Shown piece by piece: positions 46,678-50,664 of a DNA stretch of 64,000 nucleotides; within the stretch, counting starts at the first letter, position 1; each line of letters starts with the position of its first letter. The notes beneath the pieces were generated by a model. The model was not told where the DNA came from. It did not search any database and saw nothing but the letters and a program-made list of their open reading frames with translations. Position numbers and translations under genes: made by a program. The stretch lies in assembly GCA_034520565.1 (NCBI GenBank), contig JAXHNL010000002.1:32001-96000 (forward strand), written 5' to 3'. The DNA comes from Halodesulfurarchaeum sp. GTDB lineage: Archaea > Halobacteriota > Halobacteria > Halobacteriales > Halobacteriaceae.

Positions 46678-47805
46678 TCAGTTCGTGATGATGCCGGAAA
46701 GTTCGTCCCGGTCGAAAAGCGGGGTGTCGACCCGCTCCGGGTACAGCTGGGTGGCAAACCGTTCGAGGAGGTAGAGGTGCTGGATCGGCCCGAGGTAGAT
46801 CGGACCGCCCCGGTAGACCGCTCCTTCCTCGACGGCGGTGATCCGACTGGCCGTCTCGTGCTCCTGCATAAACGCGAGGACACTCTCCTCGAACTCGCTC
46901 TGGGTCTTTGCCTCGTGGCCCCGCACGAAGAGCACCTCGGGGTCCACCTCGAGGAGGGTCTCGTAGTCGATCTCTGCGCGAGTCCCCGTGCTGAGACCCT
47001 CCACGCCGGAGTCCGCAAAGGCATCCTGGACGTTGAGATCGTGGAAGGCCTTCTTGTTCGCGCCCTGGCCGTCGAGCCGGTAGGGCGAGAAAGCGGTCGG
47101 CTCGTCGCTCCCGCCCCAGACGAGAGCGGCCTGGGGACCCGCCGCCGGGATCTCCTCGGCGACCGAATCGACGACGTCGTCGTGGAACCCTTCGAACGCC
47201 TCGTAGCGTTCGGTCTCCTGGAAGACGAAAGCGACCTTCTCGAAGGCCTCGTACATCGTGAGATACTCGTAATCGTGCCACTCGTCGGTCCGCCGGAAGA
47301 TCGTGTTGCCGAAGAATGGGCCGACCCGTTCCTCGATCTGCTCGACATCGTCCTCGTCCATCCCGTCGAAGACGTTGATCAGCCAGTTCGGATCCATGAG
47401 ATGGACGTCGGCGTCGATCGAGAGGAACGTCTCCCGTGAGACCCCCTGCTGGACCAGATCGGCGATCTCGTCGGTCTCGACTTCGACGCCCAGTTCCTCG
47501 TAGCCGGTAGTGTGAAAGCGGCTCACCTGGCCCACCGAGGCGATCGCGTCACCGTGACCGAGCGCCACGAGCATATCGGCGTAGCCGGAGCAATAGACTG
47601 CCGCCCGCTGGGGAACGGCGTCGAAGGTGACCTCCCCGACGGGCGGCATCGACACCGAATATGCGGTGGAGTCGGACTCGGTCGTGGTCCCATTTTCATC
47701 CGCTGTCGTCCCGGTCTCGCTGTCCTCGTCCGGACTCGCACAGCCAGCCAGCACTCCGGTTATCGCTGTCGCGGCGCCAGTCTGCAGGAATCGGCGACGG
47801 TGCAT
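46678..47805 (-). CDS. Iron-siderophore-type ABC substrate-binding lipoprotein
   Basis: Tat RRRFL and LAGC; MPPVGEVTFDAVP, IDYETLLEVDPEV, GGPIYLGPI. Confidence 0.88.
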   Translation of the reverse strand: MHRRRFLQTGAATAITGVLAGCASPDEDSETGTTADENGTTTESDSTAYSVSMPPVGEVTFDAVPQRAAVYCSGYADMLVALGHGDAIASVGQVSRFHTTGYEELGVEVETDEIADLVQQGVSRETFLSIDADVHLMDPNWLINVFDGMDEDDVEQIEERVGPFFGNTIFRRTDEWHDYEYLTMYEAFEKVAFVFQETERYEAFEGFHDDVVDSVAEEIPAAGPQAALVWGGSDEPTAFSPYRLDGQGANKKAFHDLNVQDAFADSGVEGLSTGTRAEIDYETLLEVDPEVLFVRGHEAKTQSEFEESVLAFMQEHETASRITAVEEGAVYRGGPIYLGPIQHLYLLERFATQLYPERVDTPLFDRDELSGIITN

Positions 47806-47811
47806 GGCTAG

Positions 47812-47829
47812 AATTAGGCACCCCTAATT
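47812..47829. promoter_or_regulatory. Putative DtxR/Idr-family iron operator
   Basis: Perfect inverted repeat AATTAGG-CACC-CCTAATT a few bp upstream of the binding-protein start; weaker box at ~47847-47866. Confidence 0.6.
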
Positions 47830-47939
47830 TAGAAAAGATTTCCGGTTTTTTCGGCTCGGCTAAAAAACGTGCGGGCGATTCGCGTGGGAGACGTGGTGGA
47901 GAGCAATCTTTATCAACCGAGACACACCTCCACCCCAGT

Positions 47940-47969
47940 ATGCGCGTCGTCGCGGTAGTACGTGAGTAG
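47940..47969 (+). CDS. Putative Val-rich leader peptide MRVVAVVRE upstream of valS
   Basis: ATG CGC GTC GTC GCG GTA GTA CGT GAG TAG; TATA-like TTTATC at 47909-47914, about 28 bp upstream of the ATG. Confidence 0.6.
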   Translation: MRVVAVVRE

Positions 47970-48038
47970 ACTCGCGGGCAGAACTGCACGCGCTTCTCGT
48001 GTGGTTTGGTTCGAAAAGCGACGACTCCATGAGTACTC

Positions 48039-50664
48039 ATGACACAGGACATTCCCGAGAACTACGAGCCCGAGCGGATCGAATCCGAGTGGGAGCACTA
48101 CTGGCTCGAGGAGTCGGTGTACGCCTACGAGGACACCGGCGCCACCGACTACGTGATCGACACCCCGCCACCGTACCCGACCGGCAACCTCCACATCGGG
48201 AACGCGCTTGGCTGGTGCTACATGGACTTCCTCGCCCGGTATCGCCGGATGCAGGGCGGCGACGTTCTCTTCCCGCAAGGCTGGGACTGTCACGGCCTCC
48301 CGACCGAGGTGAAAGTCGAGGAGAACCAGGACATCCACCGAACCGACGTCCCCCGCGAGGAGTTCCGCCAGATGTGCGTCGATCACACGGAGACCCAGAT
48401 CGACGCCATGCGGACCCAGATGCGCCGGCTCGGCTTCTCCCAGGACTGGGATCAGGAGTTCCGCACGATGGACCCGAGCTACTGGGGGAAGACCCAGCGC
48501 TCCTTCGTCGAGATGGCCGAAAAGGACTACGTCTACCGGGACGAGCATCCGGTCAACTGGTGTCCCCGCTGCCAGACCGCGATCGCGGACGCCGAGGTCG
48601 AAACCGAGGACCGGGACGGCACGCTCTACACCATCACGTTCCCCGGGATCGACAACGACGAGATCGAGATCGCGACGACCCGACCGGAGCTGCTCGCGGC
48701 CTGCGGGAGCGGTGGCAGTCCACCCGGAGGACGAGCGCTACGCGGACCGCATCGGGGACACCTTCGAGGTGCCGCCGGTCGGCCAGGAAGTCGAATGCAT
48801 CGCCGACGAGGAAGTCGACCCCGACTTCGGGACGGGCGCCGTGATGATCTCCACCTTCGGGGACAAACAGGACGTTGACTGGTGGGCCGAATACGACCTC
48901 GACCTCCGCGCCGTGCTTACCGAGGACGGCCACCTGAACGACCTCGCCGGGGAGTACGAGGGGCTATCCATCGAGGCCGCAAAGGAGCAGATCCCTGCCG
49001 ACCTCGACGAGGCGGGGCTGCTCGTGGACAGCGAACCGGTCGAACAAAGCGTCGGGGTCTGCTGGCGGTGTGACACCCCGATCGAGATCCTCTCGAAGGA
49101 CCAGTGGTTCGTCGAAGTTCGGCAGGAGGAGATCCTCGAAAAGGCCCAGGAAGTCGAGTGGATTCCCGAGCACATGTACGCCCGCCTCGAGGAGTGGACC
49201 GAGGGCATGAGCTGGGACTGGGTCATCTCCCGCCAGCGCGTGTTCGCGACCCCGATCCCCGCGTGGCAGTGTGCGGACTGTGGCCACTGGGAGATCGCCG
49301 ACGTCGAGGAGTTGCCGGTCGAACCGACCGAAAGCGAACCGGCCGTCGGGGAGTGTCCCGAGTGCGGGGCGAGCGAGTGGACCGGCGAGACCGACGTGAT
49401 GGACACCTGGATGGACTCCTCCATTTCGGCGATGCACGTCGGCGGCTGGCCGGCAGAGCCCTTCGAGCCCGTGGCGCTCCGCGAGCAGGGCCACGACATC
49501 ATCCGCACCTGGGCGTTCTACACCCTCCTTCGGACCGCGGCGCTCGAGGAGGAGAAACCGTGGGACACCGCACTGATCAACGGGATGGTGTTCGGCCCCG
49601 ACGGGAACAAGATGTCCAAATCACGGGGGAACGTCGTCTCGCCGGACGAGGTGCTCGAGGAGGAGAGCGCCGACGCCTTCCGCCAGGCGATGGCCGTCGG
49701 CGGACAGCCGGGGGCCGACGTCCAGTTCCAGTGGAAGGAGGTCACCGCGGCCTCGCGGTTCCTGACAAAGCTCTGGAACGTCTTCCGCTTCGCCAGCGGG
49801 CACCTCGATGCGGACACGCCCGACATCAACGCGCCGGCCTATCGGGACACCGATCGCTGGATCCTCGACCGGCTCGCTGGCGTCACCGAGGAGATGACCG
49901 ACGCGATGGACGAGAACCGCTTCGACACCGCCGTCCGGGCCCTCCGCGAGTTCGTCTGGGAGGACCTCGCCGACGACTACGTCGAACTCGTGAAGGGTCG
50001 GCTCTACAACGGCCGGCCGGGCGAGCGCGACGCCGCCCGGGCGGCCCTGTACGAAACCCTCTCGGCAGTCGTCCGACTGCTCGCCCCGTTCAGCCCCTTC
50101 GTCGCCGAAGAGATCTGGCATCACCTGCCGGGGACCGAGGGAAGCGTCCATCTGGCCGACTGGCCCGATACGGAGACCCCAGACGGGGACTCGACCGTCG
50201 GCGAGGACATCGCCGAGTCCGCCCGGACGGTCCGGGCCTGGAAGTCCGAGCAGGGGATCGCCCTGAACGCCGACCTCGAGCGGGTCGAGCTGTACTTCGA
50301 GGAGGAACCACAGCACGGCGTCGACACCTACGACCTGAGCGAGACGGTTGGGGCCCCGATCCGCACGTCCATCGGGCGACCGGACCTCGAAGCGGTCGCC
50401 ACGGACGTCGATCCGGACGAGGCCCAGATCGGCCCGACCTTCCGGGACGAGGCGGGCGCGATCATGACCGCTCTCGAAGACGCCGATCCGGACACGGTCA
50501 AAGCCCAGCTCGACTCGGGCGGGCCCGTCGAGGTGTCAGTCGACGGCTCGACCGTCGAGATCGATTCGGAGATGGTCGCCGTGGCCACAGAGTACCGGAC
50601 CGAAGCGGGCGAGGAGGTCGCCGTCCTCGAGGTCCCCTTCGGCACGATCGTCGTGGTTCCCTGA
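48039..50664 (+). CDS. valS: Valine--tRNA ligase; single extra G near 48705
   Basis: [15 protein letters not shown] (HIGH), [31 protein letters not shown]; removing one G in TGCGGGAGCG joins the two ORFs. Confidence 0.96.

Follow-up and report, generated by a model that had tools for sequence, protein, structure and literature searches.

A leaderless upstream ORF with tandem rare valine codons as a candidate leader-peptide regulator of valS in Halobacteria

Here, we analyze the leader of valS, the valyl-tRNA synthetase (ValRS) gene, in a 64,000-nucleotide stretch of DNA from the archaeon Halodesulfurarchaeum sp. (assembly GCA_034520565.1, contig JAXHNL010000002.1, positions 32,001 to 96,000, forward strand), to which we refer as the window. 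A first-pass annotation had proposed that a cognate leader peptide, encoded by a short valine-rich upstream open reading frame (uORF), controls valS, and this core idea is supported by our comparison of haloarchaeal genomes. The uORF is very probably a real, translated cis-regulator of valS, and it probably senses Val-tRNA(UAC) through pausing of the ribosome at two consecutive GUA codons. On balance, we favour the reading that the region is a cis-acting leader of valS, with the GUA-GUA uORF as its sensor and a helix between the uORF and the segment upstream of valS (P1) as the most likely read-out. We consider the core idea supported because many families keep the uORF together with its distance from the promoter and its pair of Val codons; because this pair stays GTA, a rare codon, whereas synonymous change is seen at other codons; because a second lineage of valS and the gene ilvB carry analogous leaders with cognate codons; and because the pairing GTCGTCGC/GCGACGAC, which forms P1 in the window, has lineage-specific counterparts. 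The window sequence on its own is only suggestive, and the comparative evidence is decisive: in the single sequence, an exact complement of at least 8 nt between uORF and spacer arises in 2% of spacer shuffles, and one of at least 6 nt in about 30%.

On re-reading, all letters and coordinates given by the first-pass annotation were correct (TATA-like box, uORF, 69-nt gap, both pairs of complements, palindrome and out-of-frame ATG), and the identity of the downstream gene as valS was confirmed by TIGR00422. The leader and its gene are composed as follows (TSS, transcription start site; BRE, B recognition element):

47898..47916, plus strand: BRE/TATA promoter of the leader transcript, with TTTATC at 47909-47914
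47940..47969, plus strand: leaderless uORF MRVVAVVRE* (ATG CGC GTC GTC GCG GTA GTA CGT GAG TAG)
47942..47947, plus strand: GCGCGT, alternative-pairing strand, complement of ACGCGC at 47988-47993
47946..47953, plus strand: 5' strand of helix P1, GUCGUCGC, within the uORF; its partner is 48018-48025
47955..47963, plus strand: GTA GTA CGT (Val-Val-Arg), the proposed sensing site, with the rarest Val codon in tandem
47993..47999, plus strand: pyrimidine/T run CTTCTCG, a candidate TnC pause or terminator site, at +54 from the presumed TSS
48018..48025, plus strand: 3' strand of helix P1, GCGACGAC, 13 nt 5' of the valS ATG
48028..48041, plus strand: palindrome CATGAGTACTCATG spanning the valS ATG and holding an out-of-frame ATG at 48029
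48039..50664, plus strand: valS (ValRS), a TIGR00422 match lying in two frames

The stop codon of the uORF (47967-47969) is separated by a 69-nt spacer from the valS ATG at 48039, just 5' of which lies an in-frame TGA.

The position of the uORF relative to its promoter is that of a leaderless gene. Among long ORFs of the Halodesulfurarchaeum genome, the pattern TTTA[TA][ACT] is most frequent 31-28 nt ahead of the ATG, and the TTTATC of the uORF, which begins at -31, agrees with the first-pass remark that this box is spaced for a leaderless start. The arrangement is shared with related leaders: in an alignment of 43 sequences (A5) the columns GAAc-nTTTAT are nearly invariant, and in 51 of 60 unique leaders the hexamer richest in A and T starts precisely 30 nt 5' of the uORF ATG. 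From the agreement of this spacing with that of leaderless genes, we infer that the uORF starts at the 5' end of the transcript. Most leaders have no AT-rich box or promoter directly before valS, and no Shine-Dalgarno (SD) sequence at valS; since no second TATA box precedes valS, the uORF and valS would lie on one transcript. In Haloferax, about 72% of transcripts lack a leader, and 5' untranslated regions (UTRs) that are long and structured are unusual (PMC4983044). A sigma-70 promoter scan, based on a bacterial model irrelevant to archaea, gave 0 promoters. Among public sequencing runs, a search with 47850-48450 gave five, each sharing 3% of the query words; at 80% likeness, four of these matched valS coding sequence of relatives from 48024 or 48144 onward and no part of the leader.

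We surveyed the regions upstream of valS in 23 relatives (24 loci) and at 80 loci retrieved by an alignment search with the ValRS N-terminus. The compared genomes are related, and the counts that follow thus measure breadth rather than independent events. The uORF was present at 21 of the 24 loci, and a uORF with the exact motif at 48 of the 80. Carriers include Halorientalis, Natronomonas, Halapricum, Halomarina, Halococcus, Halocatena, Salinibaculum, Haladaptatus, Halobacterium (two metagenome-assembled genomes, MAGs, of Halobacterium sp.), Halarchaeum, Halorussus, Salarchaeum and MAGs of Natrialbaceae. Among the 32 loci without the exact motif, 21 do not belong to Halobacteria (methanogens, Methanoperedens, Hadarchaeota, undefined euryarchaeotes and others) and five carry one-off variants in the same context (GGA GTA CGG TAG; GTA GTA TAA; GCA GTA CGA TAG; GTA GTA TCG; GTA ATA CAT); the rest include Halorutilales, Halorarius and three MAGs. 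The first-pass annotation had named lack of conservation as grounds for giving up its proposal, and the Val-rich uORF is clearly kept across valS loci of Halobacteriales.

The association with valS is highly specific. Halobacteriales possess two ValRS lineages, which are 65-77% (type A) and 35-43% (type B) identical to the N-terminus encoded in the window. We built a sequence-only covariance model of promoter and uORF (R1) from the sequences of alignment A5, and searched with it 121 genomes of Halobacteriales, each at least 95% complete. The scores were bimodal: there were 60 strong matches (33.7-64.3 bits), one per genome, and the next-best matches reached at most 24 bits, over the promoter part only. 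All 60 strong matches lay on the contig and strand of a type-A valS, 42-181 nt before its first matched residue, and they covered 60 of the 62 genomes with a type-A valS, both exceptions belonging to one family (f12). Judged from these sequences, conservation upstream of valS is far beyond chance. Rfam 15 gave no match for positions 47500-48400 of the window (cmscan, E up to 10) or for seven related leaders (E up to 1). Other sites of GTAGTACG in the Halodesulfurarchaeum genome appear to be coding sequence read on the opposite strand.

Codon usage was counted in the 60 unique leaders, which were picked by a regular expression requiring the motif, the invariance of which is better judged by the 80-locus and R1 surveys. 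All 60 contain an in-frame ATG and an in-frame stop, delimiting uORFs of 7-14 codons, and the stop is TAG in 34, TAA in 13 and TGA in 13. The first codon of the Val pair is GTA in 59 of the 60 leaders and the second in every one, never GTC, GTG or GTT. The next codon is CGT in 52 leaders, CGA in 3, CGG in 2 and CGC in 2, all encoding Arg, and TAA in the last one. Residues preceding Val-Val-Arg vary freely, these three being all that is kept in the peptide, and Val accounts for 33% of uORF residues after Met1. The synonymous variation of Arg, the use of three stops and the kept frame have the look of a signature of translation.

GTA is the rarest Val codon in the Halodesulfurarchaeum genome (4.5% of Val codons in 849 long ORFs), where GTA-GTA makes up 12 of 2967 Val-Val pairs and where a single gene encodes tRNA-Val(UAC); in the valS pieces of 65 loci, it represents 28 of 2551 Val codons (1.1%). 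Since Arg drifts synonymously and Val does not, the pattern points to selection for the rare codon rather than for the amino acid or the peptide.

Leaders of analogous design were found upstream of two further groups of genes. In families f2, f5, f8 and f13, and in one f14 genome that has it as an additional copy, type-B valS has a conserved leaderless uORF of its own. We examined 20 type-B upstream regions (L117-L135), 16 of them outside family f6 and 4 within it. In 15 of the 16, we found a different leaderless uORF, of 14-27 codons, which ends in (F/V/R/K) GTA GGG GCN NNN TAG, often with further GTA codons; its stop codon lies in the loop of a GGGGC/GCCCC hairpin, which is followed by a G-poor tract. 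The 4 loci of f6 have a TATA box directly before valS and no uORF. Type-B leaders of f13 and f8 also keep GTTTCGACGGATGTATTG, CAACGACCAGTAT and an SD-like GGTGA before the ATG.

A pattern for the 3' module of the type-B leader matched 56 of the 121 genomes, typically twice per genome in type-B families. All 20 second sites that we retrieved (L140-L159) lie 73-205 nt before the gene for the large subunit of a biosynthetic acetolactate synthase, ilvB (two of the proteins were tested against TIGR00118 and scored 663 and 690 bits, above its cut-off of 538). The leaderless uORFs at all 20 sites end in an Ile/Leu/Val-rich ..IVGAx* (e.g., FASIRIVGAL, SLIIVGAA, LLGIIVGAR); they are written with the rare codons ATT, GTA and CTT, and share the module GTA GGG GC..TAG..CCCC with type-B valS. 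In Halodesulfurarchaeum itself, the ilvB uORF ends ..SIAIVGAPGPQ* (L160:251-331, minus strand). We regard the ilvB leader as a candidate ilv-type attenuator in archaea, on the strength of its codons and layout. Cognate-codon leaders thus precede three Val-related gene groups, therefore suggesting sensing of charged tRNA, and would otherwise be hard to explain. Directly before the TATA box of the same ilvB, we also observed three tandem units of about 24 nt, cgcggacccacgatccggacctaa (L160:371-440, minus strand), which may be binding sites of a regulator.

The first-pass annotation had suggested a search for cognate uORFs at other aminoacyl-tRNA synthetase genes. Neither ileS nor leuS of Halodesulfurarchaeum has a uORF, and a TATA box lies immediately before each gene. 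A crude genome-wide scan for leaderless uORFs yielded 17 candidates; the three in which Ile or Trp codons are repeated lie ahead of genes for a pterin-binding enzyme, a protein without assigned family and a DmsR-type regulator, and thus show no cognate link.

We then considered how the uORF may be read out. Minimum free energy (MFE) folding of the leaders repeatedly pairs the first half of the uORF with a segment shortly upstream of valS, which gives the predicted helix P1. As reported by the first-pass annotation, GTCGTCGC (47946-47953) is exactly complementary to GCGACGAC (48018-48025), and other genomes have counterparts specific to their lineage: the strands are GUCGUCGC/GCGACGAC in the genus of the window, GGCUGAC...GUCGG/CCGAC...GUCAGCC in Halorussus (L071, L074, L080), CAGUCGGUAG/CUACCGACUG in a Natronomonas MAG (L053) and GUCGCUGGU/ACCAGCGAC in L078. 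Within the genus, A-to-G and C-to-U changes preserve P1 as G-U pairs. RNAalifold predicts P1 in the Natronomonas-like trio of the L053 group (15 pairs, with one column AU/GC/CG) and across four Halorussus leaders (12 pairs). Of 18 representatives, 13 have the 3' end of P1 within 0-20 nt of the valS ATG, and in the remaining 5 the distance is 31-65 nt.

P1 was also compared with controls. We computed duplexes between each uORF and the distal 45 nt of its own leader, optimised every cross-species pair in the same manner, and assessed the difference by permutation. The duplex energy averaged -18.9 kcal/mol for own pairs vs -16.1 for cross-species pairs (p = 1e-4, n = 21); the same test gave p = 0.015 (n = 12) and 0.039 (n = 7), and an earlier version p = 0.0085. 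Against dinucleotide shuffles, the number of predicted P1 pairs was 8.5 vs 4.5 (26 representatives, Wilcoxon p = 3e-4). Masking the footprint of a ribosome on the uORF raised the predicted accessibility of valS positions -20..+3 from 0.46 to 0.54, vs 0.48 when a neighbouring segment was masked (p = 7e-4 for uORF masking, n = 42). Folds and controls thus lend support to a predicted duplex between the uORF region and the valS initiation region, with no SD involved. The hexamer AGCGAC occurs in 31 of 63 type-A valS spacers vs 1.7 expected, and CAGCGA is likewise among the most enriched. As an observation apart, (A)CCGAC(C)AGCGAC recurs near the main start codon in type-A valS leaders; 8 of 20 ilvB leaders and at least one type-B valS leader (L130) contain it as well, and it may do more than form the 3' strand of P1.

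The two other structural elements of the first-pass annotation fared less well, so that of its alternative pairings the one of GTCGTCGC with GCGACGAC recurs by lineage and the other does not stand out. The switch pairing of GCGCGT with ACGCGC is present and is used in one MFE fold, yet a test in which the start of the uORF was paired with the bases ahead of the T run gave no better result than cross-species controls (permutation p of 0.27 for helix length and 0.07 for energy). The palindrome at the valS ATG is present too, but it is not conserved even inside the genus, relatives reading CCATGAGCACCCATG, CCATACTGATCCATG or CCATATAAACACATG instead of CATGAGTACTCATG.

In the mechanism that we propose, transcription would start at or beside the A of the ATG at 47940, so that the 9-codon uORF would stand at the extreme 5' end of the valS mRNA and be translated without a leader. 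Its two consecutive GUA codons, the rarest for Val, would be read by the single tRNA-Val(UAC) alone, and the supply of this tRNA in charged form would set the dwell time of the ribosome on the uORF. P1 (47946-53 with 48018-25) would occlude the SD-less initiation region of valS; a ribosome paused on GUA GUA would keep the 5' strand in its mRNA channel, P1 would not form, and initiation at valS would rise. The outcome would be a homeostatic feedback in which low Val-tRNA leads to more ValRS, presumably with this direction and at this level of control, akin to the mycobacterial Cys small ORFs or to ermC. The conserved TnC run at about +52 may add a pause or a premature-termination step; it could, for example, pause the polymerase and let a ribosome load before the distal strand is made. 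Translational unmasking through P1 is the read-out that we tentatively favour over termination, because it has the better statistics and a precedent in the leaderless Cys small ORFs of mycobacteria. Premature termination at the TnC run is rather unlikely to be the main read-out, less so to contribute, as the two could well act together.

Several observations weigh against this picture. The codon table was drawn from a regex-selected set that contains the motif, and kinship of the compared genomes makes the p-values overstate independence. Distal pairing is little or absent in 7 of 26 representatives, and P1 is not predicted in L015, L016, L027, L038 and L063. In a MAFFT alignment of 33 diverse leaders, in which the distal strands are out of register, RNAalifold predicts 0 pairs, and the leader of the window folds no better than shuffles (z = -0.01). 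The advantage of own over cross-species P1 is modest (about 2-3 kcal/mol) and in part reflects conserved GUCG/CGAC motifs, and the predicted gain in accessibility from uORF masking is small. That P1 occludes the SD-less internal AUG of valS is an assumption, and P1, once formed, would also hinder initiation at the uORF.

The same sensor could instead act on transcription, which we consider unlikely. The TnC run, some 50 nt into the leader, would then be a premature terminator, intrinsic or dependent on aCPSF1/FttA: a ribosome at GUA GUA, close behind the RNA polymerase, would shield G-poor RNA or block a hairpin and allow read-through into valS, and a ribosome finishing fast would leave naked RNA on which transcription stops, as in trp/ilv attenuation or at tnaC with Rho. 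The run itself is conserved, with an all-pyrimidine hexamer containing at least 3 T in 43 of 63 spacers vs 22% expected (median position +52 from the presumed TSS and 48 nt before valS), TTCTCG in 23 of the 63 vs 0.6 expected, and strong enrichment of TTTCTC. Intergenic terminators of Haloferax carry a similar motif, a run of T that closes with C; T5C stopped 95% of transcripts there, and hairpins alone terminated as well (PMC7237163), and cooperation of the U-tract with aCPSF1 in termination is reported (PMC8716108). For many leaders, folding of the RNA that ends at the T run gives a hairpin spanning the uORF, a scan for bacterial-type terminators flags 47987-48003, then GTTTGGTT, and the leaders of type-B valS and ilvB display the GGGGC/GCCCC hairpin, a G-poor tract and a T run. 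However, the start of the uORF, as mentioned, did not pair with the sequence ahead of the T run better than in cross-species controls, and a hairpin that follows GUA GUA and holds the stop codon in its loop, present in 51 of 59 MFE folds, is no more stable than shuffles (mean z -0.09). Covariation in a terminator hairpin (uORF nt 2-14 with the 12 nt before the T run) was not significant. In full-length folds the T run often lies in a hairpin loop and not after a hairpin, many runs are short (TTCTC), and the conserved distal strand of P1 is left without a role.

The remaining explanations do without valine sensing by a translating ribosome. The uORF could be a constitutive device for ribosome entry or unfolding, which opens the leader or feeds reinitiation at the valS AUG, the rare codons merely slowing passage. 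Most leaders do lack an SD or separate promoter at valS, the figures for Haloferax given above (PMC4983044) make a long structured leader unusual, and P1 needs opening for either ORF to be read; however, this leaves unexplained that the slow codons always match the amino acid of the regulated enzyme, with GTA in the second valS lineage and Ile/Leu/Val codons at ilvB, and ileS and leuS of the same genome are plain leaderless genes. In the genus of the window, moreover, the out-of-frame ATG at 48029 would trap scanning ribosomes, and we consider such a device improbable. More improbable still, GUAGUACGU could be a binding site, either a ValRS operator mimicking the tRNA-Val anticodon UAC, like that of E. 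coli thrS, a T-box-like tRNA site or a DNA operator at +16..+24. All nine of its bases are invariant, even those at third codon positions, and they hold UAC; a binding site does not account for the in-frame ATG at leaderless distance, the in-frame stops of all three kinds and the Arg synonymy, type-B valS leaders share just the in-frame GTA and not UAC in the same context, GUAGUACGU is not consistently in a hairpin loop, and no Rfam family matched, T-box included. Finally, we give hardly any credence to a stand-alone small RNA or mini-ORF unrelated to valS, such as a CreT-like tRNA-sequestering element or a functional micropeptide. The build is CreT-like (leaderless AUG, few codons, two consecutive rare codons and a stop; PMC8501985), but there is exactly one copy per genome, directly upstream of valS on the same strand, the peptide conserves VVR alone, and most lineages have no promoter between the uORF and valS.

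The valS gene of the window departs from its relatives in one respect. TIGR00422 positions 2-225 and 226-828 are matched in different frames, as the gene is split over two frames (48039-48878 and 48712-50664) by a single extra base near 48703-48712; at this site the window has 19 nt (TGCGGGAGCGGTGGCAGTC) vs 18 nt in relatives, in all of which the valS ORF is intact, with about 875 aa. The host genome is an assembly of 1.86 Mb in 2 contigs with 62.5% G+C, and no second valS was found in it (completeness rated 80.7%). The frame split reflects either an assembly error or a recent pseudogene. The divergent upstream neighbour of the leader is a gene for a Peripla_BP_2 binding protein, a lipoprotein (46678-47805, minus strand), which has an AT-rich box of its own, ctaatttagaaaag, in 47806-47860. 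Between its promoter and that of the valS leader we noticed the T runs ggttttttcgg and ctaaaaaacg; a similar layout, ..cctaaa..ttttttgg..cctaaa.., lies upstream of valS in L019, L022 and L023.

Leader-peptide attenuation is a textbook mechanism of bacteria, and to our knowledge little is in print on the regulation of archaeal aminoacyl-tRNA synthetase genes. Our literature search, which did not extend to supplementary tables, found no archaeal leader-peptide attenuator and no haloarchaeal valS or ilvB leader. The accessible text of studies on TSS and ribosome profiling in Haloferax and Halobacterium (PMC4983044, PMC7261190, PMC10117724, PMC6161675) does not mention a valS or ilvB leader peptide in archaea, and Babski et al. 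report Haloferax uORFs of 15-31 aa ahead of trpS and pheS, valS not being among the genes listed. We hold it a real possibility, slightly short of an even one, that Halobacteria have a branched-chain "ribulon", in which leaderless leader peptides with GUA, AUU and CUU codons control both lineages of valS and the ilvB operon, by 5'-end gating of SD-less internal initiation or by shielding of a TnC/aCPSF1 site. If true, this would be the first leader-peptide sensing of amino acids described in Archaea, with a read-out unlike the bacterial one, and functional coupling of transcription and translation would be used for regulation in archaea. The valS leader is short and sharply defined, and it occurs in tractable haloarchaeal genera (e.g., Halobacterium). 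Whether archaeal ribosomes regulate in cis by sensing charged tRNA is thus now a directly testable question.

Among known systems, the classical leader-peptide attenuators are those of E. coli pheST, ilvGMEDA/ilvBN, trp and his, and actinobacterial ilvB leaders also belong here. The valS leader shares with them a short ORF with cognate codons before a synthetase gene or biosynthetic operon, a downstream T/U run and alternative pairings with the leader ORF. They differ in having an SD start and a defined pair of terminator and antiterminator, which is read by bacterial RNA polymerase; the valS leader is leaderless, has just two regulatory codons and no significant terminator hairpin, and archaeal termination differs. 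T-box riboswitches sit upstream of valS in Firmicutes, where a GUN codon in the leader lets this same gene respond to the charging state of tRNA-Val, the logic proposed here. There, in contrast, the tRNA binds the RNA directly, with neither ribosome nor ORF, and the cmscan searches described above returned no T-box match for 47500-48400 or for the seven related leaders. The feature expected of a thrS-type operator, UAC within GUAGUACGU, is not consistently in a loop and is absent from type-B leaders. In ermC/cat translational attenuation and at tnaC with Rho, a ribosome that halts on a short leader ORF likewise remodels the downstream RNA (ermC) or bars a termination factor (tnaC). The halt is caused there by a drug or by an effect of tryptophan on the nascent peptide, and not by scarcity of a charged tRNA.

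Within haloarchaea, two consecutive rare codons in the leaderless mini-ORF creT engage ribosomes and a rare tRNA (PMC8501985). CreT shares with the valS leader a mini-ORF (leaderless in H. hubeiense), two consecutive minor codons, a downstream structure and dependence on codons and not on the peptide; unlike it, CreT is a toxin paired with CreA and CRISPR-Cas, which sequesters tRNA in trans via AUA or AGA codons. The valS leader has GUA codons and is fixed in cis before valS, with one copy per genome that always lies upstream of this gene, and its divergent neighbour in the window is Peripla_BP_2; we found no sign of a CreT-like module. The valS leader most closely resembles, by analogy, the leaderless type known from mycobacteria. 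In the report on the "Cys ribulon" (Canestrari et al., bioRxiv 10.1101/834739), ribosomes stalled on leaderless poly-Cys small ORFs block a duplex that sequesters the downstream initiation site. Both have a leaderless small ORF at the 5' end of the mRNA with consecutive codons for the sensed amino acid. The mycobacterial elements are bacterial, have a ribosome-binding site containing an SD and serve Cys metabolic operons and not aminoacyl-tRNA synthetase genes; the valS leader, known from sequence alone, is archaeal, uses a rare synonymous codon and has no downstream SD.

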